This document shows, piece after piece, positions 3 through 31,487 of a DNA stretch of 47,078 bases; the first letter of the stretch is position 1; each line of letters opens with the position of its first letter. Source of the stretch: Eubacteriales bacterium (GTDB lineage Bacteria > Bacillota > Clostridia > Oscillospirales > CAG-272); the NCBI GenBank assembly GCA_045652845.1, contig JAZOLJ010000002.1, positions 1 through 47,078 of the forward strand, in the 5' to 3' direction. A program made the translations under genes and the position numbers. Below the pieces are notes generated by a model. The model did not search any database. It was not told where the DNA came from and saw only the letters and a list, made by a program, of their open reading frames with translations.

Positions 3-230
3 TGCGCCTACGTGGATCACCACGTTGCCGACGAAGGGAAGCACATGGGTATTGATAATATCAGGCGCGTGGTGGCAAGACTCACGGAGCTTGGCGTAGC
101 CACCGACACCACCAAGCACGCCATCAACCATTTTGCGCACACTGCGGCATCGCTGCAGGATATGCTTGAGGAGCTGGTAAGGGAGGACGGGTATCTCGTT
201 GCCTACGACGGGTGCACGGTAGAGCTTTAA
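3..230 (+). CDS. 3' end of an unidentified protein-coding gene (5'-partial; frame open to the window edge)
   Basis: Frame 3 is open from nt 3 to TAA at 228-230 (...EELVREDGYLVAYDGCTVEL). A strong hairpin terminator follows 30 nt downstream. I cannot recognise a family from the 75 C-terminal residues. Confidence 0.5.
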   Translation, partial: CAYVDHHVADEGKHMGIDNIRRVVARLTELGVATDTTKHAINHFAHTAASLQDMLEELVREDGYLVAYDGCTVEL

Positions 231-259
231 GCATTTAAAGATTGGCTAAAAAGCAAAAA

Positions 260-291
260 GGAGCACGGGCGTATCGCCCGTGCTCCTTTTT
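260..291. terminator. Rho-independent terminator shared by two convergent genes
   Basis: 12-bp stem GGAGCACGGGCG / CGCCCGTGCTCC with loop tat, followed by TTTTT. An A-run lies on the 5' side, so it can work on both strands. Confidence 0.8.
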
Positions 292-310
292 GTGTGCTGT
301 TTTAACGTTA

Positions 311-1003
311 TCAGCAGTATTCACGCAGTGTATCGAGTGCGCTTTTTTCAATGCGGCTCACGTAGGAGCGTGAAATGCCAAGCCTTGCCGCCACCTCGCG
401 TTGGGTAAGCGGCGGATTGCCGTCAAGCCCATAGCGCAGTGAAATGATCTCGCGCTCGCGTGCGTCAAGCACAGTTTCCACCAACCGTCGCACACGCGTG
501 GAGCGAATGCTTCGATCTACCTCCTCCTCCACGTTGTCCTCGGTGGCGATCACGTCAATGTAGGTTAAGGGATTGCCGTCGCGGTCTACGTCTATCGTTT
601 CGTTGATCGAAACCTCGGCGGAAAGCTTTTTTTGCGCGCGAAAATGCATGAGGATCTCGTTTTGAATGCATTTGGCACCGTAGGTGGCAAAACGCGCACC
701 GTTTTGGGGGTTAAAGGTGTCAACCGCCTTTACCAGTCCAATCGTGCCGATCGAAACAAGATCCTCGCTGTTTTTTGCGGCTCCGTAGTATTTGCGCACG
801 ATATGTGCAACCAGGCGCAGGTTGTGTAGGATCAGCCTTTCGCGTGCCGCCATGTCGCCCAAAGCCTTTTTGGCAAATGCCTCGCGCTCCTCGGCGGCGG
901 TGAGCGGCGGCGGAAAATTTTGCGGTGTGCTGATGCCAAGCAGCATATGGACCGCACCCAAGATCAGCGAGATCAGAGCAGAAAACAAAAAAATCACCTC
1001 CAA
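311..1003 (-). CDS. sigK: Sporulation-specific sigma-70 family sigma factor with a hydrophobic pro-sequence, most similar to pro-sigma-K
   Basis: HNLRLVAHIVRKY and ISRSYVSRIEKSAL match my memory of B. subtilis SigK (HNLRLVAHIVKKF, ISRSYVSRIEKRAL) better than SigE. NFPPPLT follows a roughly 20-25 aa hydrophobic leader. No spoIIGA lies upstream. Start is ambiguous: the longest ORF begins at TTG 1003, but GGAGG (1001-997) sits 8 nt upstream of in-frame TTG 988, which I favour (225 aa). Sigma-factor call about 0.95; sigK versus sigE about 0.6. Confidence 0.85.
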   Translation of the reverse strand: MEVIFLFSALISLILGAVHMLLGISTPQNFPPPLTAAEEREAFAKKALGDMAARERLILHNLRLVAHIVRKYYGAAKNSEDLVSIGTIGLVKAVDTFNPQNGARFATYGAKCIQNEILMHFRAQKKLSAEVSINETIDVDRDGNPLTYIDVIATEDNVEEEVDRSIRSTRVRRLVETVLDAREREIISLRYGLDGNPPLTQREVAARLGISRSYVSRIEKSALDTLREYC

Positions 1004-3807: not shown

Positions 3808-5211
3808 ATGTTAGAGCTCACAGAACAGTATACGGAAAACGTGCGGCTTTTTGAGGAAGAGCTGCGCGTAAATGACAATTTTGATATCATCAAAAAGGTG
3901 CTGCGGATCGGCAAGGATGAGGTTACGCTCTTTTATATCGACGGACTCATTAAGGACGGCGCGATGCAAAAGCTGTTTATTTATCTGCTTTCTCAAAAGC
4001 AGCTGCCGCCCGATGCCAAAACCTTTCTTGAAACGAATATGCCCTACGTTGAATGCGACGTAACGGGCAATGCCGCGCTCATGCTGCAAATGATACTGTC
4101 GGGTGCCACCGTGCTGTTTGGCAGCACCTTTGGTGCTGAAGGAATGGTGATAGACGCGCGCACTTACCCCGCGCGCGAAACGGCAGAGCCCGAAAACGAC
4201 CGCGTGATGCGCGGCCCGCGTGACGGGTTTGTGGAAACGCTGGTTTTCAATACTGCTCTCATTCGCCGCCGCATTCGCGACACGGCTCTTACCATGCACT
4301 ATACCACCATGGGCAAGGCATCAAAAAGTGACCTTGTGATCTGCTATATGCAGGGGCGTGCCGACCCCAAGCTGATCAAATATATCAAGGAAAGGATCAG
4401 CGGTATCAAGACCGATGCGCTTAGCATGGGGCACGAATCGCTTGCCGAAACGCTGATTCGCTCTCGTTGGTATAATCCGTTTCCGAAAATACGCTACACC
4501 GAGCGCCCCGACGTTGCCTCCGCGCATTTGCTTGAGGGCAGCGTGATCATTTTGCTTGACAACTCACCCGCCGCCATGATTTTGCCAACGGCTATCTTTG
4601 ATTTTTTGCAGGAGAGCAGTGATTTTTACCTGCCGCCACTCACGGGCACCTATTTGCGTATGGTGCGCCACGCCGTTTTTTGGCTTACGCTCTTTATGAC
4701 GCCGCTTTGGTTTCTTGGTGTGCTCAACCCCCAATACGTGCCCGAATGGTTGGCGTTTGCGCTACCCGCCGAGCGCGGTAAGCTACCCATTTATCTGCAG
4801 CTCCTGCTTGCGGAATTTGTAATCGACGGGCTGCGCATGGCATCCATGAACACCCCCGATATGCTTGCAAATTCGCTCTCGGTGGTGGGGGGCTTGATTC
4901 TTGGTGATTTTGCCGTTGACGTGGGGTGGCTGATCCCAGAGGTTATTCTTTATATGGCGTTTGTGGCGATCGCCAATTTTACGCAGACCAGCTTTGAGCT
5001 GGGGTACGCCCTTAAATTTATGCGCTTGCTGCTGCTTACCCTAACGGCGTTTTTCAATCTTTGGGGATTTGCTGCGGGCGTGGTGCTGATCCTTTTGTTG
5101 ATCGTTTCCAATAAAACGGTAAACGGCGGGCACAGCTATCTTTACCCCTTGATCCCGTTTTCCTTCAAGGCACTGCTCTCACTTTTCGTGCGGCGCAAAA
5201 AACAGTCTTGA
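3808..5211 (+). CDS. GerA-family spore germination protein, A-subunit type (GerAA/SpoVAF-like), orphan
   Basis: 467 aa. Soluble N-terminal half contains RGPRDGFVETLVFNTALIRRRIRD. C-terminal multi-TM half (FDFLQESSDFYLPP..., LLAEFVIDGLRMAS...) is typical of GerA A subunits. No B or C subunit genes are adjacent. Confidence 0.8.
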   Translation: MLELTEQYTENVRLFEEELRVNDNFDIIKKVLRIGKDEVTLFYIDGLIKDGAMQKLFIYLLSQKQLPPDAKTFLETNMPYVECDVTGNAALMLQMILSGATVLFGSTFGAEGMVIDARTYPARETAEPENDRVMRGPRDGFVETLVFNTALIRRRIRDTALTMHYTTMGKASKSDLVICYMQGRADPKLIKYIKERISGIKTDALSMGHESLAETLIRSRWYNPFPKIRYTERPDVASAHLLEGSVIILLDNSPAAMILPTAIFDFLQESSDFYLPPLTGTYLRMVRHAVFWLTLFMTPLWFLGVLNPQYVPEWLAFALPAERGKLPIYLQLLLAEFVIDGLRMASMNTPDMLANSLSVVGGLILGDFAVDVGWLIPEVILYMAFVAIANFTQTSFELGYALKFMRLLLLTLTAFFNLWGFAAGVVLILLLIVSNKTVNGGHSYLYPLIPFSFKALLSLFVRRKKQS

Positions 5212-5265: not shown

Positions 5266-5769
5266 ATGCAAAAAACGCAAAATGAACGGCATTACGGCAT
5301 CACGGTGGCGGGTATTGTGATACTGGCGCTTTCCATTTGCATTATCTTTTTATCAATTTTTGTGCCGCGTGTGCGAGAAAACAGGATCCTGCGTGAGCGC
5401 GTTAGCCTGCTGCTGTACGCCGAATACGAGCGCGTGCTGCTTTGTGACCCGTTGCTGGAAACGGGGGGCGCGTTGCCCGACCGCGGGGCGCAGGTCATGC
5501 TGACCGCAGCCGAGGTCGATACCCTGCGTGAAAAGCTGGCGGCGGTAGCGGATGGGGGATTTCAAAACGGCGAAAATTTGACTATGCCCGAGGGTGCTTG
5601 GGATGTAAAGCTGCAGCTTCGCACTACCTCGGGGGAGTATGCCGATCTTTATTTTACCGATGCTGCACTGTATTTTTATGCCGAAGGCACGGCGTTTTGC
5701 TTTGAGGCAAAGGACGTGGCGGCATACAATGCGCTGCTTTCCTTTTTGCAGGCTCTTTTGACAAATTAA
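5266..5769 (+). CDS. Hypothetical membrane-anchored protein (single N-terminal TM)
   Basis: ATG 5266 lies 54 nt after the gerA-like stop, with TM helix GITVAGIVILALSICIIFLSIFV. A terminator follows immediately. No recognisable domain. Confidence 0.55.
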   Translation: MQKTQNERHYGITVAGIVILALSICIIFLSIFVPRVRENRILRERVSLLLYAEYERVLLCDPLLETGGALPDRGAQVMLTAAEVDTLREKLAAVADGGFQNGENLTMPEGAWDVKLQLRTTSGEYADLYFTDAALYFYAEGTAFCFEAKDVAAYNALLSFLQALLTN

Positions 5770-5775
5770 CGCTTG

Positions 5776-5813
5776 GGGTGCGGCTCGACCTACGATCGAG
5801 CCGCACCCTTTTT
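5776..5813 (+). terminator. Rho-independent terminator
   Basis: 13-bp stem GGGTGCGGCTCGA / TCGAGCCGCACCC followed by TTTTT. Confidence 0.85.
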
Positions 5814-5964: not shown

Positions 5965-5994
5965 TTGACAGAACGGACTTCAATATGTTAAAAT
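5965..5994 (+). promoter_or_regulatory. Sigma-A-type promoter (extended -10) for the giant secreted-protein gene
   Basis: TTGACA (5965-5970), 18-nt spacer, TGtTAAAAT (-10 at 5989-5994), about 50 nt upstream of ATG 6045. Confidence 0.6.
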
Positions 5995-6044
5995 AAACCA
6001 TAACTCGTTTAATGTGCGTCGCGCACATAGAAAGGAGAACATAC

Positions 6045-9000
6045 ATGAAAAAACAGATGCGAGTTGTTCTTTTTGCGGTGTTGGTACTGTTACTGGTAAC
6101 CGTTACTGCAATTGCGGCATCCGCCGCCACGCCGTTTAGCACGGGTGAGAAAAGCTATGCCACGCTTGCGGAGGCTGCGGCTGCAGTCACCAACGGTGGC
6201 ACCATTACCGTGACGGAGGACGTTAGTCTTTCCGCCAACGCCACGCTCTCTGCAACAAAGACCTATACCCTGCAGGGAAGCACAGCCACCCGAAAGATCA
6301 CCTTCACCGGTGGCGGCTTGGTGATCAGTGCGGGCAACGTTACCATTAAAAATCTTGCCATTACGGCAAACGCTGCCAACGCCATTACGGTGAAAAATTC
6401 CGAAACCAAGCTCACCGTCAGCACCGGTGCGGTCATCACCTCAAATGGCAAAACCGACACGACGGGTCTTTCCGTGGCAGTGGCAGGCGATGCCACCCTG
6501 CTGATCGAGAATGGCAAGCTGACGGGTGCTGTCGGCTCAACCGATGAAAATGCTGCGAAGGGTGCTACTATCAAGATCACGGGCGGCACGCTGAACTCGA
6601 ACCCCAACACGCCCGCAGGCCACGTGCTGCGCGTCACCGGAGCAGACTTTCATTTAACCGTTGAGGGCGGCACCTTCAATTTTACCAGTACAAGTAACAG
6701 CTTGTCTTCCTTGCTGTATGCTGACGACACCTCCGCCACGGTCACCATCACGGGCGGCACCTTTTGGGGCAGAGGCACTGATGGCGCACCCATGCTTTAT
6801 TGCAAAAAGGGAACGTATTCCGTCAGCGGCGGCGCCTTTTACTCACAGATCCCCGGAGCAAGTGGCAATGAATCTGTCGTTTTTTGGGCAAATGGCAGCA
6901 ACTCCTCGAAGTCGGACTATACCATCTCCGGCGGCAGATTTTATGCTTATGGCGACGGCTATACCTACCCTCTTGCTGTAGATGCTTGTACCTCTATGAA
7001 GATCACGGGCGGCTTTTTTACCTTCGTTGATACGCTGGAGAGCCCCGATGACATTGATCTTACTAAGGCGAATAAAGAATATTACGTAAACTCTTTCGGC
7101 AAAGATTATTGCAACGGTGTAAGAATTCAAACCTCCACCCTCGTGGAAATTGGCGGCGGCACCTTTATGGGCGGTAAAAGCAATGCGGCACTTAACATTG
7201 CGGCAACAACAGTAAACGTGCTGATCTCGGGCGGCACCTTCTACGGCCACCGTGCGATCCAAATCAAGTCTACGGGCGGTGCGCTAACCGTTACGGGCGG
7301 CAATTTTTACCCCAACCCGGGGCAGCAGAACTGTAAGCTGCTCGATATAGATAGCTCAACTGCCGTGGTGAATATCTTCGGCGGTAACTTTGATGCCGAA
7401 TATACCGCCGCGGGTAACGTGACCTCGGGCGCGGTGATCTATTTTAAAACTTCAGGCACCGTAAACGTATACGGCGGCACCTTTCACTGCGCCTCTACCT
7501 ATAGCTCTAAAGAGAGCTCTTTGGTCAGATTTGATGCTGCCGGTACGCTTTTGCTTGACAAGGGCACCGTTGTGGTTGGCAACGGCACCTTTACGGGTAA
7601 CGGTGCCACGGTAACGTGCGGTGGTGTTGCCACAATGTTCCGCATGTGCACTGACAACGCTACCCTTACCGTAAACGCAGGCAATTTTGTGATCTCTGAT
7701 AAAGCCACCGGTATTTATGCCGAGGCGGCAGCTGTCACCACTACCGTGAACGGCGGCAGCTTCACCTCGGGTGATACCGCAACCGTGATGAACCTTCTTG
7801 CAGGCAATGTTACCGTAAACGGCGGTAGCTTCACCGGCACGGGCGCGTATTTAATTAATGTAAACATACCGAAGGATAGTGGCAGAGTTACCGTAAACGG
7901 CGGCAGCTTCACCTCGGGTGATACCGCAACCGTGATGAACCTTCTTGCAGGCAACGTTACCGTAAACGGCGGTAGCTTCACCGGCACGGGCGTGTGCCTT
8001 ATCAACGTGCTCATGTCGAAGGAAAACGGCAGCTTTACCGTAAACGGCGGTGTGTTCACGCTGAATTCCGGCTTCGCCTCCGCGGGTGGCGCCATCATTC
8101 GCACGGACATTCAGTTAATTCCGCAAAACGCAGATCAGAATTACGACCCCACCGATTTCTACTATACCTGCGATGCAACGATCGTGCTGGCAGGCGGCTT
8201 GTTTGTGGATAACAGCTCTACCAACCGCGCCATTATTGATACCACGCTCGGAGAAGCCGTTGTTGTGTATGACGGCGCGATCTTCCTTTCCCGTTACCTC
8301 CAAGCATATATCATTGCTTCCAACAACAACGTAGCTCCCAGTCTTGCCCTTGCCCCCAACGCGGCAACCTGCTCTTACCTTGGCAGCAGCTACTATTGCT
8401 ATATGACCACCGCCACCACTGATGCTAACAAGGCACCCGTAATGGAGGGCGGTGCCGGCGTTACCATCACCTCCGCGTACGAGGGCATTCGCTTTACCTC
8501 CTACATACCTGCCGCTGTGGCAGCAAATTTGCCCAAAGGCTACTCCTTTGGCACGTTGATCGCGCCTGCCGATTACGTGGTGGCAGCAGGCGGCTTTACC
8601 CATGCAAAGCTGAATGAATGGAAGGCTGCCAATAGCTCTGTTGGCACCGTATACGTTGATATCGTAGCAAAGAACAGTATAGAGGAAAATACCGACGGCA
8701 GCATTTCCTTTAGCGGCGCGCTGGTTTCCTTGAAGCAGCAAAACTACACGCGTAGCATGGCAGCCGTGGCTTACGTGCTTGCCGACGGCGTGTACTATTA
8801 CAGCACCTACGACCCCGATCAAAACGCGCGCTCGATGGCGTACGTTGCCAAGGATGCATATACGGCAATTGTAGATGCCTCCGACGAAGACCACATGAAC
8901 CACTCTCTTTATAAGAAGGGCGCACACAGCGCCTTTACCGAAGCGGAGCAGCTCATTCTCAAAGCCTACAGTGCTTATAATCACACGTGGGATAAGGCAC

Positions 9001-11540
9001 TCGTAAGTATTTCCACCAAGGTTACCTGGGGTAGCGATGCAAGCCCGAACCTGAAAACGGCAGCAGAAAACCTGAAGACCACACTGCAAGCCATGGGCTG
9101 CACCACCACCGGTGCGGTGATCCTTGTGGGTAACACGGGTGATGCCGAGGTGGCGACCGCCCTTTCCGAAATTGAAGGGAACGGCTACTACGTTGGTGTG
9201 ATCAACGGCAAGCTTGTGATCGTGGGTACCACCAACGCACTTACCATGCAGGCATTTGCATACTTTACAGGCACGTATCTTACCTCTGCCGCTGCGGGCA
9301 GGCAGGTTGAGATCTCAGAAAAGGTTGTTTCCAACGCTAAAATGGTTACGCTTAATGCAGATGCCTCCTTTGTGTTCCAGCACACCCGTGAGGGCAATCC
9401 TTACAAAAACAGTGGCGATTTGAACAAGGATATCGACTTTAACATCAGCGAAAACCACCTTTACAACTACGAGGACAACAGCAAATACGTTGACTATCCC
9501 TTGGTTGCCGCCTTTGAGATCGCCGTGGCGCTTGACGGCTCGGCAGACTATTACAATTACCTGCCCGATAACGAGGCGTTTGGCAACGCAAACATTCACG
9601 TAGGTATTACACAGCTTGCCCTTTCCACCCTGCTTGCGGGCAAGGACGTGGGCTATTACGGCTACGCACTCAAGGATGGCAACGTGATCATTTCCTCCTT
9701 TGACGATGCAACGCTGCGTCTTGCAAAGAAGCTCTTTATCGAAGATCTTGCCGATTTTGCCGCAAACGGCACCTACATGATCCCCGTGGATTATGAATTT
9801 GAAAAGGGCTATTCCGATGGCTTTACGGGCGCATTTAACAGCTATTCAAGTGATGCAACCATTCAGGCGGGCGCAAACCTTGTTGCCAAAGAGCTTTCGC
9901 TGCTTGTCACCGACTTCCCGCGCCCCAAAGATCTGCAGCTTTCGGGTGCGGTAAACGTTGATAGTAACTCGCTTGAGCTTTACTATCAAAATGTAGATGT
10001 CACCGATTACACTGCATATTGTGCATTGCTTGAGCAAAAGGGATACGACGTATACATGGCAGAGCGCGCGGTGGAGGGCAACCGCTTTGTAACCTACTAT
10101 CATCCCACCAAAAAGATCACGCTTCACGTGATGTACAATCAATATCGCTATGCCGCAAGAGAGGAGACCAACAACGGCACGTCACTCTCAAAAATGTTTA
10201 CGCCTACCCTGCGCGTGGTGGCAGCCAAGGTAGATGGCACGTACGTCAACCTTTTGCCCGAGAAATATCTCGCTCCCCAAGCTACGGGTCATAAGACCGC
10301 CACAAGGCTCACAGTTCTCGAGCTCAGCGATGGCAACTTTGGCTACTGCTATATTTACACGCTTGAGGACGGTACGTTTGTAGTCCTTGACGGTGGCGGC
10401 GGCGCTAATAACGCGGTTGATGCCGAGCGTCTTTATAACGTGCTCTCTAAGTTGCATACTGATCTTCACGGCAAGCCCGCAACCGGCAACCCCATTGTGA
10501 TCTCCGCGTGGTATGTCTCTCACGGCCACGGTGACCACATGAGAATGATGGAGTACTTTATTTCCAAGTATTGTAATGTTGAACGGGTATCCGGACTTGG
10601 CAGCATCGCTGGCTACAACTCTACCGTTCGTGTTGATGCAATCATTGGTAACTTTGCCTCCAACGACGAGGCATACAACACGTTTGACCCCAAGCAGGAC
10701 ATAGCAAACATGCTTGGCACCGATGAATGGTTTAAGAACAACGGCAAGGCAATTCCTTACTACAAGGTACACACCGGTCAGAGGTTCTATATCAAAAACC
10801 TTGAGTTTGAGGTTATGTACACGCACGAGGATATTCATCCTTGGAGCATGGACTACTTTAACAACACCACAACCGTTATCCGCCTGACGGCGCATGAAAC
10901 AGACGGCTCCGGCAGCATTCTTGCCGGTAAAAATGCGATCAGCACCATGATCCTCGGTGACCTGCAGGCACGCGGCAGCATGGTTATGCGCGCTACGTGG
11001 GGTGATTACGCCAAGTCCGATATCGTTATGTCCGCGCACCACGGCGGCCAAGGCTGTGAGGGCAAGCTCTACGAGCTGATCGACGCACAGGTCATTCTGT
11101 GGTCGCACCGTGCGCTGGGTCTGCAAAACATGCCCAACGACCTCGCGGATGCGACGTCGGCTACCCAAAAAGAAAATTTTGTATGGTTCTCGAATACCAG
11201 ATGGCTCTACATTATTACGAGTATGTCTCTTGATGCAGTCGTAGGTGACAATGCGAACTATAACGTTACCATGACGCTGACTAAGGACGGTATTGTGGGT
11301 CTTGCCGAGGGCGAGGCTGCAGCCCAAGAGTTCCTTGCGGGTCTGGATAACGTTTACGCCGGCAAGGCAGAGAAACTTGCCTTGGGTACGGGTATCATGA
11401 ACGGTGGCGATTACGTGGGCAACGGCGTGATCTTGTGGCGCGGCAACTTCACGTATCCCATGCCCGCACCCCGTCATCCTGATCCTATGGACAGCAAATC
11501 TGACACCTTTGATGAGAATCTGGTCGATATTCTTGACTGA
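6045..11540 (+). CDS. Giant (1831 aa) secreted multidomain protein: signal peptide, beta-helix-like region with a GGxF repeat array, a beta-sandwich-like middle region, and a C-terminal roughly 840-aa module ending in a metallo-beta-lactamase-fold domain
   Basis: AAAGGAGA RBS at 6031-6038 supports ATG 6045 rather than the ORF-track start at 6012. Signal peptide is MKKQMRVVLFAVLVLLLVTVTAIAASAA. About 19 [IV]xGGxF repeats. C-terminal motifs in order: VLDGGGG, SHGHGDH (10521-10538), YTHED, ILGD, SAHHGGQG. The C-terminal module aligns with both lipoproteins at 35836-40604. Confidence 0.9.
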   Translation: MKKQMRVVLFAVLVLLLVTVTAIAASAATPFSTGEKSYATLAEAAAAVTNGGTITVTEDVSLSANATLSATKTYTLQGSTATRKITFTGGGLVISAGNVTIKNLAITANAANAITVKNSETKLTVSTGAVITSNGKTDTTGLSVAVAGDATLLIENGKLTGAVGSTDENAAKGATIKITGGTLNSNPNTPAGHVLRVTGADFHLTVEGGTFNFTSTSNSLSSLLYADDTSATVTITGGTFWGRGTDGAPMLYCKKGTYSVSGGAFYSQIPGASGNESVVFWANGSNSSKSDYTISGGRFYAYGDGYTYPLAVDACTSMKITGGFFTFVDTLESPDDIDLTKANKEYYVNSFGKDYCNGVRIQTSTLVEIGGGTFMGGKSNAALNIAATTVNVLISGGTFYGHRAIQIKSTGGALTVTGGNFYPNPGQQNCKLLDIDSSTAVVNIFGGNFDAEYTAAGNVTSGAVIYFKTSGTVNVYGGTFHCASTYSSKESSLVRFDAAGTLLLDKGTVVVGNGTFTGNGATVTCGGVATMFRMCTDNATLTVNAGNFVISDKATGIYAEAAAVTTTVNGGSFTSGDTATVMNLLAGNVTVNGGSFTGTGAYLINVNIPKDSGRVTVNGGSFTSGDTATVMNLLAGNVTVNGGSFTGTGVCLINVLMSKENGSFTVNGGVFTLNSGFASAGGAIIRTDIQLIPQNADQNYDPTDFYYTCDATIVLAGGLFVDNSSTNRAIIDTTLGEAVVVYDGAIFLSRYLQAYIIASNNNVAPSLALAPNAATCSYLGSSYYCYMTTATTDANKAPVMEGGAGVTITSAYEGIRFTSYIPAAVAANLPKGYSFGTLIAPADYVVAAGGFTHAKLNEWKAANSSVGTVYVDIVAKNSIEENTDGSISFSGALVSLKQQNYTRSMAAVAYVLADGVYYYSTYDPDQNARSMAYVAKDAYTAIVDASDEDHMNHSLYKKGAHSAFTEAEQLILKAYSAYNHTWDKALVSISTKVTWGSDASPNLKTAAENLKTTLQAMGCTTTGAVILVGNTGDAEVATALSEIEGNGYYVGVINGKLVIVGTTNALTMQAFAYFTGTYLTSAAAGRQVEISEKVVSNAKMVTLNADASFVFQHTREGNPYKNSGDLNKDIDFNISENHLYNYEDNSKYVDYPLVAAFEIAVALDGSADYYNYLPDNEAFGNANIHVGITQLALSTLLAGKDVGYYGYALKDGNVIISSFDDATLRLAKKLFIEDLADFAANGTYMIPVDYEFEKGYSDGFTGAFNSYSSDATIQAGANLVAKELSLLVTDFPRPKDLQLSGAVNVDSNSLELYYQNVDVTDYTAYCALLEQKGYDVYMAERAVEGNRFVTYYHPTKKITLHVMYNQYRYAAREETNNGTSLSKMFTPTLRVVAAKVDGTYVNLLPEKYLAPQATGHKTATRLTVLELSDGNFGYCYIYTLEDGTFVVLDGGGGANNAVDAERLYNVLSKLHTDLHGKPATGNPIVISAWYVSHGHGDHMRMMEYFISKYCNVERVSGLGSIAGYNSTVRVDAIIGNFASNDEAYNTFDPKQDIANMLGTDEWFKNNGKAIPYYKVHTGQRFYIKNLEFEVMYTHEDIHPWSMDYFNNTTTVIRLTAHETDGSGSILAGKNAISTMILGDLQARGSMVMRATWGDYAKSDIVMSAHHGGQGCEGKLYELIDAQVILWSHRALGLQNMPNDLADATSATQKENFVWFSNTRWLYIITSMSLDAVVGDNANYNVTMTLTKDGIVGLAEGEAAAQEFLAGLDNVYAGKAEKLALGTGIMNGGDYVGNGVILWRGNFTYPMPAPRHPDPMDSKSDTFDENLVDILD
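6570..8210 (+). repeat. Protein-level repeat array: about 19 copies of a [IV]-x-G-G-x-F unit (irregular 25-45 aa period) inside the giant gene
   Basis: ITGGTL, VEGGTF, ITGGTF, VSGGAF, ISGGRF, ITGGFF, IGGGTF, ISGGTF, VTGGNF, IFGGNF, VYGGTF, VGNGTF, VNAGNF, VNGGSF x4, VNGGVF, LAGGLF, all read from the translation. Confidence 0.8.
7744..7992 (+). repeat. In-frame tandem duplication: two 102-nt copies (7744-7845 and 7891-7992), period 147 nt
   Basis: The copies differ at two positions only (gtgaac/gtaaac, ggcaat/ggcaac), and both changes are synonymous. Each encodes TVNGGSFTSGDTATVMNLLAGNVTVNGGSFTGTG. Confidence 0.95.
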
Positions 11541-11563
11541 TCCCCCAACCACAAAATGTAATC

Positions 11564-11600
11564 AAGCCCCCAAGCACACTGTGCTTGGGGGCTTTCTTTT
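11564..11600 (+). terminator. Rho-independent terminator of the giant gene
   Basis: Stem AAGCCCCCAAGCAC / GTGCTTGGGGGCTT followed by TCTTTT. Confidence 0.85.
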
Positions 11601-20758: not shown

Positions 20759-21205
20759 ATGCTGTCCGGCGAATACCGTCATTCTCTCGATGCCAAAAAT
20801 CGCGTTTCCGTTCCCGCTAAGCTACGCGATGAACTGGGCGAGGATTTTATGATCGTGCGCAGTGTGCGCGGAAACTGTCTGCGCTTTTATTCCGCTACGG
20901 CTTGGAAAGAATATATTGAGCCCTTAAAAAAGCTGCCCCGTAAGGTGGCAGAGGATACCTTTTGGTTTCTGTACCGTGATGCGGCACAGGTCACGCCCGA
21001 CTCGCTCGGTCGTGTGCTGATCCCCAACGGCCTTCTCGAGTTTGCGGGTGTTGCAACCAAAGCGGATGAAGGGAATAACAGAAGCCTTGTGATCGTCGGC
21101 TGCGGCGATTTCGGTGAGATCTGGTCCGAGCAGAATTACGATGCACGCGTTTCGAGCATTGACGTAGATGCCATTCGCCGTGCGCTTGAAGAAAGCGGAC
21201 TTTAA
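20759..21205 (+). CDS. mraZ: Transcriptional regulator MraZ
   Basis: [23 protein letters not shown]...GRVLIP: the duplicated SpoVT/AbrB-like MraZ signature. First gene of the dcw cluster. Confidence 0.95.
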
Positions 21206-21206
21206 T

Positions 21207-22145
21207 ATGGCACAGGAATTTTCTCACCGCTCGGTACTGCTTGATGAATGTATCGAGGGGCTTGCCATCAAGGCGGATGGCATATACGTGGATGGCACCG
21301 CAGGTGGCGGCGGCCATTCCTATCACATTGCAAAAAGGCTGACAAGCGGCAAGCTTGTTGCCATTGACCGTGACGAGGCGGCTATTGCCGCCGCAACTGC
21401 GCGACTTTCCCCCTTTTCAGAGCGCGCAGCCGTATATCGCAGTAACTTTTCCGAGGTGAGTGAGGTGCTTGATGCCCTCGGCATTGACAAGATCGACGGT
21501 ATGCTTCTTGATCTTGGCGTTTCCTCTCACCAGCTCGACACGGCCGAGCGCGGATTTTCCTATCAGGCTGACGCATTACTTGATATGCGTATGGATCGCC
21601 GTTCGGAAAAGACTGCATATACGGTGATCAACACCTACTCCGAGCAGGAATTAAAAGATATTCTTTTCACCTACGGTGAGGAGAGGTTTTCTGCCCGTAT
21701 TGCCAAAAAAATCGTGACCGAGCGCGAAAAGGCGCCCATTAAAACCACCAAGGAGCTTTCCGATATTATTAAAAGCGCAATGCCTGCATCTGCGCGCGAG
21801 GGGGGGCACCACCCCGCCAAGCGCTCCTTTCAGGCGATCCGTATTGAGGTAAACGGAGAGCTTGATGCCATCGTCCCCGCCTTGAAGGGGGCAATTGCCC
21901 GCATGAACAAGGGTGGGCGACTTGCCGTTATCACCTTCCATTCGCTGGAGGATCGCATTGTAAAGCAGACCTTTGCTTCACTTGCCGAGGGGTGCAAATG
22001 CCCCAAAAGCCTGCCGATCTGCGTTTGCGGCAACAAGCCGCAGGTGAAGGTCATTACCAAAAAACCGATCCTGCCGAGCGAGGCGGAGCTTGCAGAAAAT
22101 CCGCGCTCTCGCAGTGCAAAGCTGCGTATTGCAGAAAAGCTCTGA
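21207..22145 (+). CDS. rsmH: 16S rRNA (cytosine1402-N4)-methyltransferase RsmH
   Basis: [13 protein letters not shown]...[25 protein letters not shown] 21207 immediately follows the mraZ stop. Confidence 0.95.
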
Positions 22146-22187
22146 TCACACGTTTCTTACTGAATTTTTCAAAAAGGAGGCTGCATC

Positions 22188-22859
22188 ATGTACGGAACAC
22201 AAGTATATGAAAAGGTATATTTTCAAGATGATTATAAACAACAATTCGATGCGCTGCGCAGCCGCTATCACGATCGCACACAACGCGCGCTCGGTAAAAG
22301 AGCTGTAGATCGTGATCCTGTATCCAATATTTCCGAATTTTACAATCTGCACGAGGATCTCGATGGGGGCGTTCGCCTTTCTACCATGGATTTTGTAGAA
22401 TATTTCAACCGTCGCTACGGCGGCAGTGATCGCGTTGGTGCTGCACGTGAGGCACTTGTCAATGCCAAAAACAAGGCAGAGAAAAGCGGTGAGCTTGCCA
22501 AAAAGCACAGAAGTGAAAGATCGCTGCGCGAAGGGCGCTCGCTTACTTGCCGCACGGCATTTGCGCGCCGTCACGTGCTGCTTGTCAATACGTTTTTTGC
22601 GTTTGTTTTGATGCTTTCGATCGCGCTTCTTTCCGCTTCGGGCGTTATACTTGCGCGCAGTGAGGCAGACGTTGCGGCACTTGAGCTGCAGCTGGCGCAG
22701 GGTGAGCAGGCTGTAGCCACAGAGCTTTTTGACGCAGGCGATGGTGCTTCAAGCGCATATCTAAGACGGGCGGCAGAAAACACGACCGAGGTTTTTGAAG
22801 CGAAGAGCAACGACGGCGGCATGGAAGAGCTGCTTGCTGCACTTGCCTATCTTTGGTAA
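22188..22859 (+). CDS. FtsL-position bitopic membrane protein with a long N-terminal extension (FtsL-like, tentative)
   Basis: AAGGAGG RBS. Single TM helix (LLVNTFFAFVLMLSIALLSASGVIL) at about residue 130, followed by a short coiled segment (EADVAALELQLAQGEQ). Sits between rsmH and the PBP gene, where ftsL normally lies. Confidence 0.55.
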   Translation: MYGTQVYEKVYFQDDYKQQFDALRSRYHDRTQRALGKRAVDRDPVSNISEFYNLHEDLDGGVRLSTMDFVEYFNRRYGGSDRVGAAREALVNAKNKAEKSGELAKKHRSERSLREGRSLTCRTAFARRHVLLVNTFFAFVLMLSIALLSASGVILARSEADVAALELQLAQGEQAVATELFDAGDGASSAYLRRAAENTTEVFEAKSNDGGMEELLAALAYLW

Positions 22860-22915
22860 TAAAAATCCCATATTGAGAATAGAATAAGGATGCGCGGCGT
22901 GCCGTCGTCATCTTT

Positions 22916-22960
22916 GGGCGGTGGGATCCGTTAGAAACGGATCCCACCGCCCCTTCTTTT
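22916..22960 (+). terminator. GC-rich 16-bp hairpin plus T-rich tail inside the dcw cluster (internal terminator or attenuator candidate)
   Basis: GGGCGGTGGGATCCGT / ACGGATCCCACCGCCC with loop tagaa, followed by CTTCTTTT. It is nested within an outer inverted repeat, TCCCATATTGAGAA / TTCTCAATATGGGA. Confidence 0.55.
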
Positions 22961-22994
22961 CTCAATATGGGATATTTTTGTAAAGGAGATCGGT

Positions 22995-25229
22995 ATGCAA
23001 AACAAGGGAGCTTCGATAAGGACCTTAAAGCGCGCCTCGGTGGTGGCGTTGCTGCTTGTGCTGGTGTTTTTGTTTTTGACGGTGCGTATTTTTCTCATTC
23101 AATTTTTTGACTTTGAGCGTTATCAAAAAAAGGTGCTCGATCAGTTAACGACCGAATCCACCGTCCGCGCGGCGCGCGGCGCGATCCTTGACAGCGCAGG
23201 GCGCGTGCTTGCCACCAATCGCACGGTGTACCGTATTTCAATCTATCCAAACGTGATCGCACGGGCAGAGGCCGGTGTTGCCGAGAAAATTGTCACGGGG
23301 CTTTCTTCCTTGGTGGCGGGGCTTACCGCAGAAAAGGTGAGGGAGCATATTTCGCACACGCGCGAGCTGATGCGCACCGTGGTGCGCGAGACCGATACCG
23401 ATACCGCGAGTGCAGTGATCGCTTTTATCGCCGCCGAAAAGCTTTACGATATGATCGCGGTGGAGGCGGTCAGTGACCGTTATTATCCGTACGAGGGTCT
23501 TGCCGCGCAGGCGCTTGGCTTTACCGGCAGTGACGGGCAGGGGCTTTACGGGCTTGAATTGCAATATAATACGGCACTGTCGGGTGTGGCAGGCTCGTAT
23601 ATCACCGCGCGCGATTCCACGGGCAATCGACTCCCCAATCAATACGAGGCGTATTTGCCTGCCACCGACGGCGCAACACTACATACCACGCTTGATGCGT
23701 ACGTGCAGGCGGTTTTGGAGGAGCAGCTGGAGGCAACCATGATCGAAAGTGCCGCCGCGAACCGCGCGTGCGGTATCGTGATGAACGTGAAAACAGGTGC
23801 TGTGCTTGCTATGGCAACGGTGCCCACCTTTGATCTTAACGCCCCCTTTGTGCTAAATTCCTACGCCGAGGCGGAGCTGGCGGCACTGGGCCTCGCGCCC
23901 GATACCGAGGAGTATCAAAAAGCAAAAAACGCTCTGCTGCTTGAAAGCTGGTCAAACAAGGCGGCAACCGAGATCTATATGCCCGGCTCTACCTTCAAGG
24001 CACTCACCTGCTCGGCGGTGCTCGAGGAGGATGCCGTAACCAACCTCGAGGAGCGATTTTTCTGCAGTGGCGCATTGGCGGTGGCAGACCGCCTGATCCA
24101 CTGTCATAAGGTCGGCGGACACGGCAGTCTTACCTTTACCGAGGGGCTGCAAAACTCCTGCAATCCCGTGATGATGACGATTGCCGCCCGTATTGGCACG
24201 ACCTGCTTTTACAATTACGTCAGCTCCTTTGGGCTGCTTGAAAAAACAGGCATTGATCTGCCGGGCGAGGGCAATTCGATCTTTCACGCGGCATCAAGCT
24301 TTACCGAGCTTGATCTTGCCACGGCATCCTTCGGGCAAAATTTTAAGGTTTCGGTGCTGCAGATGATCACCGCCATCGGGGCGGTGGCAAACGGCGGCAA
24401 GCTGCTTACCCCTTACGTGGTGGAACGCATGACCGACGCCGCAGGGAACGAGATCTTTCGCCACGAGGTGGAGGTGAAGCGGCAGGTCATCAGTGAGGAA
24501 ACGGCACGCACCGTTTCAGAGATCCTTGCAGGCGGCGTTGCGGGCGACGGCGGTGCCAAAAACGCTTACGTGGCGGGCTACCGCGTGGCGGCAAAAACGG
24601 GCACCTCCGAAAAGATCGGTGACGATCGCACCGCGCGTATCGGCTCTTGCGTTGGCTTTGCCCCCGCAGACGACCCCGAAATTGCCGTTATTATTGTGGT
24701 GGATGAGCCGACAAACGGCAGTAAATACGGCAGTGTGGTGGCGGCGCCTTACGTTGGAAACGTCTTTGAGGCAGTGCTGCCGTACCTTGGTGTGGAGCCC
24801 GTTTATACCGAGGAGGAAGAGAAAAATCTCACCGTCACCGTCCCCAACTGCACGGGGTATACCGCGGCACAGGCAGAAAAGCTTTTGGGGGAGCTTGGCA
24901 TTGCCTTTAGCTTCATTGGTGAGGGGGATACCGTTACCGCACAGCTGCCGAAGGCGGGGGAGCGTGTACTGTCCTCGGGCGCGCGTGTGACGCTGACGTT
25001 GGGGGCAGCACTACCTGAAACGGTTGCCGTGCCGCAGCTGGTGGGGCTCAGTGCCGCTGCCGCCAACCGCCTGCTGCTTGATTGCGGCTTTAATATCGCC
25101 ATTGGCGGCGCAAAGGATTATTTTAAGGTGGATAAGACCGTTTCCGCCCAGCATCCGGCTGCGGGCACACCGTTGCCGCGGGGCTCTGTGGTGAGTGTTT
25201 ATTTTCCGTTTGAGGAGAAAAGGGAATAG
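22995..25229 (+). CDS. Class B penicillin-binding protein (FtsI/SpoVD/PBP2B-like) with two C-terminal PASTA domains
   Basis: N-terminal TM helix. Transpeptidase motifs: PGSTFK, SCN (QNSCNP), KTGT (AKTGTSE). Two PASTA-like repeats: VPNCTGYTAAQAEKLL... and VPQLVGLSAAAANRLL... Confidence 0.9.
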   Translation: MQNKGASIRTLKRASVVALLLVLVFLFLTVRIFLIQFFDFERYQKKVLDQLTTESTVRAARGAILDSAGRVLATNRTVYRISIYPNVIARAEAGVAEKIVTGLSSLVAGLTAEKVREHISHTRELMRTVVRETDTDTASAVIAFIAAEKLYDMIAVEAVSDRYYPYEGLAAQALGFTGSDGQGLYGLELQYNTALSGVAGSYITARDSTGNRLPNQYEAYLPATDGATLHTTLDAYVQAVLEEQLEATMIESAAANRACGIVMNVKTGAVLAMATVPTFDLNAPFVLNSYAEAELAALGLAPDTEEYQKAKNALLLESWSNKAATEIYMPGSTFKALTCSAVLEEDAVTNLEERFFCSGALAVADRLIHCHKVGGHGSLTFTEGLQNSCNPVMMTIAARIGTTCFYNYVSSFGLLEKTGIDLPGEGNSIFHAASSFTELDLATASFGQNFKVSVLQMITAIGAVANGGKLLTPYVVERMTDAAGNEIFRHEVEVKRQVISEETARTVSEILAGGVAGDGGAKNAYVAGYRVAAKTGTSEKIGDDRTARIGSCVGFAPADDPEIAVIIVVDEPTNGSKYGSVVAAPYVGNVFEAVLPYLGVEPVYTEEEEKNLTVTVPNCTGYTAAQAEKLLGELGIAFSFIGEGDTVTAQLPKAGERVLSSGARVTLTLGAALPETVAVPQLVGLSAAAANRLLLDCGFNIAIGGAKDYFKVDKTVSAQHPAAGTPLPRGSVVSVYFPFEEKRE

Positions 25230-25240
25230 GGAGGTAGGCT

Positions 25241-26707
25241 ATGCTATTAAAGGATCTGCTGATGGCGGCGGGCTATGACGGTGCTGCTTTTGAAAACGTG
25301 GAGGTTAGCGGGATCACCGCCGATTCGCGGTGTGTGCAGCGTGGCTTCGTGTTTGTGGCGGTCAAGGGGCTTTCACACGACGGATTTTCGTATATCGGCG
25401 AGGCACTCTCGCGCGGTGCGGTGCTTGTGGTGGCGCAAAAGCGCGCTATGGGCGTGCCAACGCTTGTTGTGGATAGTGCACGCGCGGCACTGGCGCGCCT
25501 GCTTGACGCTTGGTACGGGCACCCTGCCAAAGACATGCAGCTGATCGGTATTACGGGCACCAACGGCAAGACCTCAACTGCTGCCATGCTTGTTTCGATC
25601 CTGCAGGCGGCGGGCAAGCCTTGCGGCTCGATCGGCACGGTTGCAGCCACGTGCGGTGATACGGTCTTGGTGGCAAAAAATGCCGATAAGCTTGCCAATC
25701 TCACCACGCCTGACCCTGCCGAGCTGTATCGCTTGCTTGCCGAAATGAGGGATATGGGGGCGGCGTACGTTGTGATGGAGGTCACCTCGCACGCGCTGTT
25801 TTTTGAAAAGGTGGCGCCGCTTCGCTTTGCGCGTGCGATCTTCACCAATCTCACGCCCGATCACCTTGATCTGCATGGAGATATGACAACCTATTATCTT
25901 GAAAAAAGAAAGCTTTTTTTGCAGGCGGAAAAGGGTGTGATCTCCTTGTTCGGCCCCTTTGGTCAGCAGCTGGCGGATAGCCTCAGCCTGCCCTTTTACA
26001 CGGTTGGCAGAGGCAACGTGCGAGAGGTAGTGGCAAACGGTGACGTCGGCGTTTCCTTCACGCTCTTGTGGGAGGGGGAGGAGATTGATATTTTTCTCCC
26101 CGTCCCCGGGGATTTTAGCGTAGAAAACGCTGCGCTCGCGGCACTGACTGCACTCTCGCTCGGCGTTTCCCCCGAGGTGGTAAAGGGTGCGCTTGCCGCC
26201 TTTCTCGGCGTGCGTGGCAGAATGGAGCGTGTGGGTAAAAACCCCTTTGGCATCAGCGTTTTTCTTGATTATGCTCACACGCCCGATGCGCTTGAAAAGC
26301 TGCTGCTTTCGGTGCGCCGCTTTCGAGGTGCCGCGCAGCAGATTATTTTGGTGTTTGGCTGCGGCGGTGACCGCGATCGCACCAAGCGGCGTAAAATGGG
26401 GCAGATCGCCACACGCCTCGCCGACTTTACCGTTATTACCTCCGACAATGCGCGCAGCGAGGAGCCGGATGCGATCATTGCCGATATTTTAAAGGGTATA
26501 GATAAAGAAAAACCGTATAAAATAATTGCAGATCGGCAAGAGGCGATCGCTTACGCCATTGAAATTGCACGGCGCGGCGATATTATTTTGCTTGCGGGTA
26601 AGGGGCACGAGGAATACGAGATACGGGGGCGTGAGCGCCTACCCTTTAGTGAGCGAGAGATCGTGGCGGCGTGCATGGCAAGGCGCGAGGCGGGTGAGTG
26701 GCTATGA
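25241..26707 (+). CDS. murE: UDP-N-acetylmuramoyl-L-alanyl-D-glutamate--2,6-diaminopimelate ligase MurE
   Basis: GITGTNGKTST P-loop, and DYAHTPDAL. TSDNARSEEP corresponds to the DNPR region and keeps the Arg associated with meso-DAP specificity. Position in the dcw cluster agrees. Confidence 0.9.
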   Translation: MLLKDLLMAAGYDGAAFENVEVSGITADSRCVQRGFVFVAVKGLSHDGFSYIGEALSRGAVLVVAQKRAMGVPTLVVDSARAALARLLDAWYGHPAKDMQLIGITGTNGKTSTAAMLVSILQAAGKPCGSIGTVAATCGDTVLVAKNADKLANLTTPDPAELYRLLAEMRDMGAAYVVMEVTSHALFFEKVAPLRFARAIFTNLTPDHLDLHGDMTTYYLEKRKLFLQAEKGVISLFGPFGQQLADSLSLPFYTVGRGNVREVVANGDVGVSFTLLWEGEEIDIFLPVPGDFSVENAALAALTALSLGVSPEVVKGALAAFLGVRGRMERVGKNPFGISVFLDYAHTPDALEKLLLSVRRFRGAAQQIILVFGCGGDRDRTKRRKMGQIATRLADFTVITSDNARSEEPDAIIADILKGIDKEKPYKIIADRQEAIAYAIEIARRGDIILLAGKGHEEYEIRGRERLPFSEREIVAACMARREAGEWL

Positions 26708-28104: not shown

Positions 28105-29096
28105 AAACCGAGGATATCCTCACCTATACCGCGTTATTTATCGCCGTGCTTTTGCTCACGGTGGTCTATGGCAATATTTTAATTCCCATATTGCGTCGCT
28201 ACCGTGCCGATCAGCCCATTCTTGAGATCGGGCCCGTGTGGCACCTCACAAAAAAGGGAACACCCACCATGGGCGGCATCTCCTTTATCATGGCACTCTT
28301 TACCGTATGTCTTGGCTTTGGGGCTTTGCTGCTGTGGCAGGGGGAGGGGGCGCGCATACTGCCCCTTATTCTCCTGGTGCTGTTTGCCGCGCTTTGCGGG
28401 GCAATCGGCTTTGTCGATGATTACTGCAAGCTCATCAAGCGCGAAAACAAGGGGCTTTCGGCGTGGCAAAAGTATTTTTTGCAGCTGCTTGCCGCCGCCC
28501 TGCTTTTGTTTCTTGCAAATGCCCTCGCGCTGACCGATACGGCAATTTATCTGCCGTTTGTTAAGGGCCGCACAGAGCTTGGCTTCTTTTATTACCCCCT
28601 GGCTCTGCTGTTTCTCACAGGCACGGTGAACGCACTCAATCTCACCGACGGGCTTGATGGGCTCTTGTCATCCACCGTGGCGGTTTTGTCGGCTTTTCTT
28701 TTCCTTTACGGAAACGTGACGGGTGAGGGGCTCTTGTCGCTTGTCGGTGTGCTGCTGCTGGGTATGTCGCTTGGATTTCTTGTCTTTAACCATCATCCCG
28801 CCAAGGTTTTCATGGGGGATACGGGCTCGCTTTTTCTTGGCGGCATGGTGGCGGGGGCTGCGCTGCTCACGGCGCGCCCGATTTCCGTGCTTGGTGCCGG
28901 CGGCATATACGTGATCGAAGCGGCAAGCGTGATATTGCAGGTGCTGTATTTTAAATGCACCGGGGGAAAGCGACTTTTTTTAATGGCGCCGCTGCACCAC
29001 CATTTTGAAAAAAAGGGGTTTTCTGAAAACACCATCGTTCTGATCTTTTCGCTGGCGGGTGCAGCCTTTGCCGCGTTGATGCTTTGGGGAGGCTGA
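28101..29096 (+). CDS. mraY: Phospho-N-acetylmuramoyl-pentapeptide transferase MraY
   Basis: NLTDGLDGL, FMGDTGSLFLGG, APLHHHFE. ATGA overlap with the murF stop. Confidence 0.95.
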   Translation: MKTEDILTYTALFIAVLLLTVVYGNILIPILRRYRADQPILEIGPVWHLTKKGTPTMGGISFIMALFTVCLGFGALLLWQGEGARILPLILLVLFAALCGAIGFVDDYCKLIKRENKGLSAWQKYFLQLLAAALLLFLANALALTDTAIYLPFVKGRTELGFFYYPLALLFLTGTVNALNLTDGLDGLLSSTVAVLSAFLFLYGNVTGEGLLSLVGVLLLGMSLGFLVFNHHPAKVFMGDTGSLFLGGMVAGAALLTARPISVLGAGGIYVIEAASVILQVLYFKCTGGKRLFLMAPLHHHFEKKGFSENTIVLIFSLAGAAFAALMLWGG

Positions 29097-29097
29097 T

Positions 29098-31385: not shown

Positions 31386-31458
31386 TGAGAAATTTGAGAA
31401 GACTGCACCGTTTGTCAGCACATGTCGTTTCTTTTTTAAAAATTATTACAAAAACATC

Positions 31459-31487
31459 TTGCAAAACGGTGCAAAATATATTAAAAT
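31459..31487 (+). promoter_or_regulatory. Sigma-A-type promoter for ftsZ
   Basis: TTGCAA (31459-31464), 17-nt spacer, TAAAAT (31482-31487), about 70 nt upstream of ATG 31557. Confidence 0.6.

Follow-up and report, generated by a model that had tools for sequence, protein, structure and literature searches.

What might be done outside the cell by a secreted protein of 1831 amino acids in which a long repetitive stalk precedes a putative metal-dependent hydrolase? This question is raised by a gene in a stretch of 47,078 nucleotides (nt) from the Eubacteriales bacterium assembly GCA_045652845.1 (contig JAZOLJ010000002.1, lineage CAG-272 of the Oscillospirales), the whole of which is called the window here. 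An earlier description made from the letters alone (the sequence-only reading) had listed, in order, a Sec-type signal, a GGxF-repeat beta-helix, a middle region and a module containing a metallo-beta-lactamase (MBL) domain, and this order is correct. The protein is proposed to be a Sec-secreted, extracytoplasmic rod with a catalytic MBL head that hydrolyses phosphodiesters, preferably those of glycopolymers, and we give this proposal about an even chance of being right. More firmly, the window protein can be counted neither as a ComEC protein nor as a recognised glycoside hydrolase (GH) nor as a polymorphic toxin; its architecture is new and the kind of enzyme is already known.

The evidence for a catalytic head lies in the MBL domain near the C-terminus. 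The MBL metal ligands are present (D1449, H1493-G-H1495-G-D1497-H1498, H1576, D1639 and H1665/H1666), and the set is the canonical zinc-type HGHGDH together with the motif III His of VHTG. Most ligand columns are invariant in alignments of 16 to 43 homologs; the exceptions are H1495 and H1665, with conservation of 90% or more, and H1576, for which invariance is limited to the closer sets. In a Foldseek search, 11 solved MBL-fold chains were matched (E 8e-7 to 4e-4) at TM-scores of 0.37-0.49 and root-mean-square deviations (rmsd) above 8 Å, and B3 lactamases score similarly. When a profile of the domain was compared with the PDB, ComEC/Rec2 proteins came first at E 1e-5 to 2e-3 (9vc6 1e-5, 9vc9 6e-5, 9ic4 1e-4), followed by the YjcS alkyl/aryl-sulfatase (1.6e-3), RNase J-like proteins and CbpE/Pce (0.08). 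The NCBIfam models 6A-MBL, ComEC_Rec2, ComEC-family and Avs1a match 5-11 of the 43 family members (9-10 of 43 for the ComEC models), and Pfam Lactamase_B, which gives no hit on the window protein, matches 25 of the 43 at E<=1e-3. By modelled fold and by motifs, the window protein is placed in the MBL superfamily (PF00753 clan), below the Pfam gathering threshold. Its closest sequence relatives mark the domain as ComEC/Pce-type (CDD cd07731-like), through matches that are weak and partial.

The head is the last folded part of a larger module, for which the AlphaFold2 (AF2) model of residues 985-1831 has a mean predicted local distance difference test score (pLDDT) of 83.8 and a predicted TM-score of 0.83. 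Foldseek with the whole module as query recognised the MBL part alone. For the first domain, D1, a family profile finds in the PDB the N-terminal domain of the GH84 enzyme BT_4395 (E 1e-3) and a GH67 enzyme (0.07). The Pfam models Glyco_hydro_20b (PF02838) or GH67N (PF03648) match 3 of the 43 members and appear in the precomputed annotations of P0204 and P0249 (P numbers denote homologs and other related proteins). These matches, weak but consistent, suggest homology between D1 and the accessory domain found at the N-terminus of GH84, GH67 and GH20 enzymes. The D1 profile also matches the D2 region in P0010 (3e-8) and in P0032. In the small domain D3, residues Y1325, G1333 and R1390 are conserved; its profile found nothing significant in the PDB, the best match being FosA at E 0.086. 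A calcium-binding-like loop, D-x-N-G-D-G-x-x-D (ALDVNGDGTADVYA), is seen between D2 and D3 in P0007-P0009 and P0028-P0034. The window protein is without this insertion, the equivalent position lying at about nt 9760-9800.

After the MBL domain comes an extension specific to the stalked form, in which the AF2 pLDDT is low past module residue 824 and which ends in an acidic peptide. Among 716 open reading frames (ORFs) of at least 300 residues in the fetched DNA, the terminal acidic motif occurs only in this protein family, and 9 of the 10 hits are homologs with both stalk and module. It is found after a Pro/Glu-rich linker at the C-termini of P0002-P0007, P0009, P0027, P0029, P0031, P0032 and P0034, and could be a docking or sorting signal. 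One homolog (L005) carries the peptide twice.

At the other end of the protein, the stalk is defined by its repeats. The strict motif [IVLF]xGGx[FY] has 16 matches in residues 28-799 against 0.26 expected (5000 shuffles, maximum 4), and relaxed matching gives about 21-23 rungs at a spacing of 22-34 residues, so that the figure of about 19 [IV]xGGxF repeats given in the sequence-only reading was a fair one. In the AF2 model of the N-terminal half, built from a 17-sequence alignment, the chain is periodic and all-beta with short strands (mean pLDDT 81), and most blocks of ten residues between 30 and 680 score above 88. The Foldseek list for this model is headed by right-handed beta-helix proteins, including Pet, Hap, UpaB, Ag43, EtpA, PL6 lyases, tailspikes and Cthe_2159, all of them weak matches with E>=0.05; no Pfam beta-helix family matches the stalk. 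Taken together, the periodic model, the rung spacing and these matches make the right-handed beta-helix that had been suggested for this region well supported but not formally proven. Beta-helices typically rise about 4.8 Å per rung, and 20-30 rungs would give a rod of roughly 10-15 nm. Among homologs, the number of GGxF rungs ranges from 3 to 23. Comparison of these sequences gives good support to the view that the stalk changes in length between lineages by gain and loss of rungs, with the cap (residues 28-140) and the last rungs (640-799) being kept.

Between stalk and module, the region of roughly 200 residues noted earlier proves to be real and consists of a conserved beta-sandwich and a helical linker with the motif S-x-[FY]-x3-[EQ]Q-x2-L-K-x-Y. 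Foldseek suggests a CBM21-like fold for the beta-sandwich: PTG CBM21 crystal chains were matched with probabilities of 0.94-0.99, E 0.17-0.37 and TM-scores of 0.37-0.52; no sequence relatives were found in Pfam or, by profile search, in the PDB. The significant local matches between the window protein and the distant proteins P0011-P0026 (1240-3050 residues) fall in this domain, which in most of them lies within about 30-180 residues of the C-terminus. Most of these giants also share a very similar signal peptide, MKKQLR.(V/A)LFA...ASA. No Pfam domains were detected in P0011-13, P0015, P0017, P0023, P0154 and P0177. In P0014, the beta-sandwich is followed by a segment that looks GH20b-like by eye and then by an EEP domain, while in P0024 a SASA esterase comes next. 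By sequence, the giant GGxF proteins form a paralogous family with a common signal peptide and usually a C-terminal beta-sandwich, and a minority of them, the window protein included, gained an extra enzyme downstream. The earlier picture, in which a stalk holds out a hydrolase at the C-terminus, describes the protein fairly; in such relatives other hydrolases, an EEP or a SASA domain, stand in the same place. It may be speculated that the beta-sandwich could bind glycans or the cell wall.

The protein is predicted to leave the cell by the Sec route. Its only hydrophobic stretch is at residues 1 to about 32, the signal carries no lipobox, and A27 of the ASA|A site is nearly invariant among orthologs. 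The MKKQLR...ASA pattern recurs in the paralogous giants, and this conservation points to a cleaved Sec signal and not to a membrane anchor. The Sec-type signal of the sequence-only reading is borne out by the sequence pattern. An uncleaved signal anchor was also considered and is less likely, as the AxA site is conserved across paralogs. No SLH, dockerin, CWB2 or choline-binding domain was found by Pfam and LPXTG is absent by pattern search, which confirms that the C-terminus carries none of these anchor motifs; there is no C-terminal hydrophobic segment and no transmembrane (TM) domain beyond the signal peptide.

The gene itself is intact and monocistronic. Orthologs P0002-P0006 (1797-1829 residues) are colinear with it over 100% of the length at 46-60% identity, and therefore a frameshift or a chimeric assembly, about which the sequence-only reading had been cautious, is unlikely. 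Its own promoter was correctly called and lies downstream of the terminator that closes the preceding unit. Its own terminator is also there, 3' of the coding sequence, ending at 11594 and not at 11600 as first given. No ORF, and hence no small immunity-like gene, lies between the stop codon and this terminator, in agreement with the first description, and the next gene is a convergent Mem_trans gene. Membership of the whole protein in a described family, which would have overturned that description, was not found in Pfam or NCBIfam: searches with all 1831 residues gave nothing meaningful and no model over threshold, and a PDB sequence search returned a single chance match. The minus-strand ORFs inside the gene are taken to be shadow ORFs of the long coding region.

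The window also encodes the module without a stalk, in two paralogous lipoproteins 24 kb downstream. Lipoprotein 1 reaches Pfam Lactamase_B at 22.8 bits (threshold 22.7), and lipoprotein 2 gives a partial NCBIfam ComEC_Rec2 match (E 8.5e-6). By BLASTP, the module matches lipoprotein 1 over residues 1026-1682 (35% identity, E 9e-98) and lipoprotein 2 over residues 1026-1686 (32% identity, E 2e-95), and MAFFT lengthens the alignment to about residues 985-1790. A colinear module of about 840 residues had been described; the colinearity holds, but the shared part is about 740-800 residues long and the last 40-85 belong to the stalked form only. A recent origin of the fusion from this lipoprotein pair was considered and rejected: the module is 40-63% identical to that of stalked orthologs in other genomes and 32-35% identical to the local lipoproteins. 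In the orthologs P0010 and P0007, the stalked gene lies at the same place on the chromosome, with sigma factor, PFK and GerA on one side and Mem_trans, UDG, GDSL, MecA and helicase on the other. Because the module is closer to stalked orthologs, and these hold the same chromosomal position, the fusion of stalk and module is judged from sequence to be old and vertically inherited. The lipoprotein pair is found immediately past alaS (32900-35545, minus strand) and downstream of the dcw/ftsZ cluster. This slot is filled in related genomes by tandem arrays, whose paralogs number three to four or more and are each about 790-800 residues long. In L007 and L008, two long ORFs each carry the C-terminal tail of the stalked form, and some genomes appear to hold two nearby stalked copies.

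The module belongs to a large family. An exhaustive HMMER search with a profile built from four module sequences, in which matches were counted as clusters at 50% identity, gave 4144 of them at a threshold of E<=1e-3 and, at the stricter E<=1e-30, 1297. Full-length matches are mostly proteins of 700-830 residues with no long N-terminal extension, and a minority have long N-termini (up to 6405 residues). The short forms inspected carry lipoprotein signals, and tandem arrays are common. All related loci that were fetched are from uncultured gut Clostridia (Oscillospiraceae, Acutalibacteraceae and 'Eubacteriales') of ruminants and humans, with several paralogs per genome. Members are named in their sources only as 'hypothetical protein' or 'MBL fold metallo-hydrolase', and no paper on the module family was found in a literature search. 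As far as these searches reach, the module with the order GH20b-GH20b-D3-MBL, the beta-sandwich domain and the family of GGxF stalks are each undescribed.

The contexts of distant members give some indication of substrate. In P0114 (L081 7001-10501), an alkaline phosphatase is fused to the module, and the same-strand run includes a GDPD+PHP gene, two ABC permeases with a solute-binding protein, a rhamnosidase-like gene and a GDSL esterase; a locus for the catabolism of phosphodiester-containing glycopolymers is hinted at by this gene content. P0155 is located between GH20/GH78 genes and GDPD/PIG-L genes, P0035 belongs to a cluster in which three MBL genes are accompanied by GH106, GH31/melibiase and an AraC regulator, and P0175 has BspA-type leucine-rich repeats (LRRs) N-terminal to the module. 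Three further neighbourhoods of distant members are of the housekeeping type and uninformative.

These observations can be assembled into a proposed mechanism. Signal peptidase would cut at ASA|A, and the right-handed beta-helix would then form a rigid stalk ending in the beta-sandwich, downstream of which sits a module of about 770 residues. In it, a small alpha+beta domain stands between a pair of GH20b-like accessory domains and an MBL-fold domain whose binuclear metal site is complete. An ester would be hydrolysed by a water or hydroxide that the metal activates; the most likely target is a phosphodiester, since among relatives that have been characterised the closest are the C-terminal nuclease of ComEC and pneumococcal CbpE/Pce. 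The ComEC C-terminal domain is a manganese-dependent phosphodiesterase and DNase whose closest solved homolog was Pce (PMC8579336), and Pce is itself an MBL-fold enzyme (CDD cd07731) that removes phosphocholine from teichoic-acid GalNAc (PMC10704324). By analogy, phosphodiester hydrolysis is the best-supported chemistry, at moderate confidence. The preferred substrates would be teichoic-acid-like polymers, sugar-phosphate polysaccharides or glycans decorated with phosphocholine, phosphoethanolamine or glycerophosphate, with extracellular nucleic acid as the main alternative. The glycan and GDPD loci, the EEP domain of P0014, the expansion of paralogs and the acidity of the domain together tilt the choice towards phosphodiester-bearing glycopolymers over DNA, a preference for which the evidence is thin. 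One may speculate that in the lipoprotein paralogs the module would be kept at the membrane surface and that the stalked form would carry it further out, either held or released.

Comparison with known systems shows how far these analogies extend. Like ComEC/Rec2, the best profile match (9vc6, 9vc9, 9ic4), the window protein has an extracytoplasmic MBL domain with an N-D-x-S...G-D...H-H-G motif IV-V region. It differs in that the ComEC domain is joined to a membrane DNA channel and an OB fold, whereas the window domain follows GH20b-like domains, and in that ComEC has an Asp in motif II and an Asn in motif III and uses manganese (PMC8579336), in contrast to HxHxDH and a motif III His. The best functional analogy is Streptococcus pneumoniae CbpE/Pce (1wra), which is, as the window protein would be, a secreted or surface MBL phosphodiesterase with canonical zinc ligands and fused non-catalytic targeting repeats. 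The similarity to Pce is marginal (E 0.08), however. Pce has choline-binding repeats at its C-terminus, of which the window protein has none; the MBL domain of the window protein is accompanied by a predicted beta-helix at the N-terminus, the beta-sandwich and the GH20b-like domains. With the beta-helix passengers and related proteins (Pet, Hap, Ag43, EtpA, PL6 lyases, Cthe_2159), the stalk would share a long single-chain helix, and it has rungs of 22-34 residues and a Gly-rich turn, but these matches are not significant, and the window protein comes from spore-forming Clostridia and has no beta-barrel translocator or TpsB partner. In layout, the protein also recalls passengers of the autotransporter or two-partner secretion kind, in which an enzyme is joined to a stalk. 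D1 by homology, and D2 by secondary-structure pattern, resemble the accessory domain of GH20, GH84 and GH67 enzymes, but here the domain precedes an MBL domain (EEP in P0014) and not a TIM-barrel glycosidase, and there is no GH catalytic domain. The secreted EEP enzymes of gut Clostridia, which are sugar-specific phosphodiesterases acting on GlcNAc-6-PC/PE (PMC10704324), share the ecological and taxonomic setting; they are secreted, metal-dependent and act on decorated glycans, and an EEP tip is found on P0014; their fold is unrelated (EEP against MBL) and they are small single-domain proteins.

Several results weigh against a glycopolymer phosphodiesterase. With the window protein itself, no model of Pfam or NCBIfam scores above threshold, and the links to ComEC and Pce are weak, at E 1e-5 or worse and covering mainly motifs IV-V. 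Glycan-locus contexts were seen in only 3-4 of about 10 members examined, glycan-type neighbours did not recur when searched by tblastn against 72 close-family loci, and the genes around the window gene and around its orthologs are conserved, of the housekeeping type and uninformative on substrate. No recognised anchor was found that would retain the protein at the cell surface. The MBL domain is acidic in 43 of 43 members (net charge -1 to -29), which is unexpected for binding either teichoic acid or DNA. This last point also bears on an extracellular nuclease, a ComEC-like head that would break down DNA or RNA, either to remodel biofilms or to scavenge nucleotides and phosphate, placed beyond the wall by the stalk; we regard this reading as unlikely. 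It draws on the NCBIfam matches to ComEC, 6A-MBL and Avs1a, the 6A-MBL and Avs1a anti-phage models being presumably nuclease-type, to judge from their names. ComEC MBL domains, moreover, are the top PDB profile matches, and the ComEC C-terminal domain is a proven DNase (PMC8579336). The alkaline-phosphatase fusion of P0114 and the EEP tip of P0014 are also compatible with nucleic-acid breakdown. Yet the metal ligands are canonical zinc-type and not the Asp/Asn manganese set of ComEC, the acidic catalytic domain argues weakly against DNA as substrate, and no recognised nucleic-acid-binding domain was found by Pfam. The many diverged paralogs per genome are hard to square with a uniform substrate, and together with the tandem arrays they fit diversified substrates better than DNA. 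The informative contexts, too, are glycan loci and not loci for nucleoside or nucleotide uptake.

An MBL-type sulfatase, or another esterase acting on non-phosphate decorations of host or dietary glycans with the beta-helix and beta-sandwich binding carbohydrate, is improbable. That the best Foldseek match is the MBL-type arylsulfatase 8gyg (7.7e-7) and that YjcS also scores in the profile search count in its favour and against phosphodiester hydrolysis, and it would suit the GH20b-like domains, the CBM21-like fold of the beta-sandwich, the members in glycoside-hydrolase-rich loci and the SASA esterase at the equivalent place in P0024. The fold matches are, however, generic to MBLs, as seen from their TM-scores and rmsd and from the similar scores of B3 lactamases, the sequence profile favours ComEC, and the GDPD and alkaline-phosphatase partners point to phosphate. 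Type III sulfatases carry dimerisation and SCP-2-like domains, and neither was detected. That the protein is mainly an adhesin or structural fibril, in which the MBL module binds rather than catalyses, seems quite improbable: the beta-helix resembles the passengers Hap, Ag43, EtpA and UpaB, P0175 has its BspA-type LRRs before the module and the acidic C-terminal peptide could be a docking motif, but the metal ligands are largely invariant across 43 diverse members, which indicates selection for catalysis. Least credible, and to our minds very remote, is a polymorphic toxin or contact-dependent effector whose stalk delivers a toxic hydrolase to competitor cells. The likeness, to which the sequence-only reading had drawn attention, is confined to a superficial layout, namely a beta-helix like that of CdiA, two-partner secretion proteins or autotransporters, a C-terminal enzyme and tips that are interchangeable in relatives. 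It was not borne out: the terminator is reached without a further ORF and the gene beyond it is convergent, the stalked gene is itself a syntenic, vertically inherited ortholog in a housekeeping region, and the module is abundant in tandem arrays as proteins of roughly 700-830 residues without a long N-terminal extension. The tip is conserved (40-63% identity) and the N-terminal part variable (32-59%, with 3 to 23 rungs), the reverse of a toxin layout, and pre-toxin, LXG, Rhs and secretion-partner domains were not detected by Pfam.

A broader version of the glycopolymer phosphodiesterase proposal, tentative and on balance doubtful, is that the window protein belongs to a modular display system of uncultured gut Oscillospiraceae-like Clostridia. 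A signal peptide, a length-adjustable GGxF stalk and the beta-sandwich would form a chassis for interchangeable heads (GH20b-MBL, EEP, SASA), the module would be a new family of glycan or glycopolymer phosphodiesterases used both on stalks and in lipoprotein arrays, and the beta-sandwich, the acidic peptide or both would attach the protein to the wall. The stalk and beta-sandwich, with variable rungs and swappable heads, offer a compact case of modular surface-enzyme evolution in Gram-positives without the usual anchor motifs. Any assignment of activity would annotate thousands of genes, and the activity could show by what means these poorly known anaerobes of the gut remove decorations of the phosphate or sulfate type from glycans, from the polymers of the cell wall or from nucleic acids.

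Features of the stalked gene, its product and other parts of the window discussed in the text (positions in nt of the window; aa, residues of the 1831-residue protein)
Feature	Position	Strand	Basis or remarks
Hairpin terminator, strong, upstream	5775-5809		closes the GerA-family unit 5' of the stalked gene
Sigma-70-type promoter-like site	5965-5994	+	TTGACA-18 nt-TAAAAT, TG-extended; 11/12 matches
ORF	6012-11540	+	longest ORF within the window
Ribosome-binding site GAAAGGAG	6030-6037	+	7 nt 5' of ATG 6045; read from sequence
Coding sequence, secreted multidomain protein, 1831 aa	6045-11540, stop codon counted	+	ATG at 6045
Sec signal peptide, aa 1-27	6045-6125	+	MKKQMR, hydrophobic core, ASA|A site
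Right-handed beta-helix stalk (predicted), aa 28-799	6126-8441	+	AF2, Foldseek, rung motifs
Stalk, N-terminal cap, aa 28-140			conserved
Stalk, GGxF rungs, aa ~87-720			
Stalk, last rungs/cap, aa 640-799			conserved
Tandem duplication in stalk, 147 nt (49 aa, two rungs)	7742-8050	+	copies 88% identical; protein repeat VNGGSFTSGDTATVMNLLAGNVTVNGGSFTGTG
Beta-sandwich aa 800-945 and helical linker aa 946-984	8442-8996	+	AF2 model
D1, GH20b-like alpha/beta domain, aa 985-1085	8997-9299	+	beta-alpha-beta-alpha-beta-beta-alpha in AF2
D2, second alpha/beta domain, aa 1144-1246	9474-9782	+	AF2 secondary-structure pattern as D1
D3, small alpha+beta domain, aa 1287-1402	9903-10250	+	AF2 model
MBL-fold domain, aa 1412-1754	10278-11306	+	fold match and metal motifs
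C-terminal extension specific to the stalked form, aa 1755-1831	11307-11537	+	conserved LWRGN segment, Pro-rich linker, acidic end
Acidic terminal peptide DTFDENLVDILD	11502-11537	+	consensus in relatives D-x-F-G-[DE]-E-[IL]-L-x-P-E
Intrinsic terminator hairpin	11564-11594	+	14-bp stem then T-run; 24 nt past stop codon
ORFs inside the stalked gene	6263-6637, 6843-7262, 7715-8110, 8115-9089, 10188-11552	-	
dcw cluster, complete	20759-32801	+	mraZ, rsmH, penicillin-binding protein with PASTA domains, murE, murF, mraY, ftsW, murG, ftsZ
Paralogous lipoprotein 1, 785 aa	35839-38196	+	lipobox LFTSC; module without stalk
Paralogous lipoprotein 2, 784 aa	38250-40604	+	lipobox LFSSC; 61% identical to lipoprotein 1

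The remainder of the window is consistent with this setting. The dcw cluster, the GerA and MecA genes and a sporulation-type sigma factor indicate that it is core chromosome of a spore-forming member of the Clostridia. Directly after the GerA-family gene (3808-5211) lies an ORF of 167 residues (5266-5769, plus strand) with an N-terminal TM segment and no Pfam hit; a 181-residue gene is found at its position in L001, and the ORF may encode a germination-protein partner. Near the window edge, an ORF of 119 residues (46518-46877, minus strand) encodes BspA-type LRRs and could represent either a surface protein or the terminal part of some larger gene.

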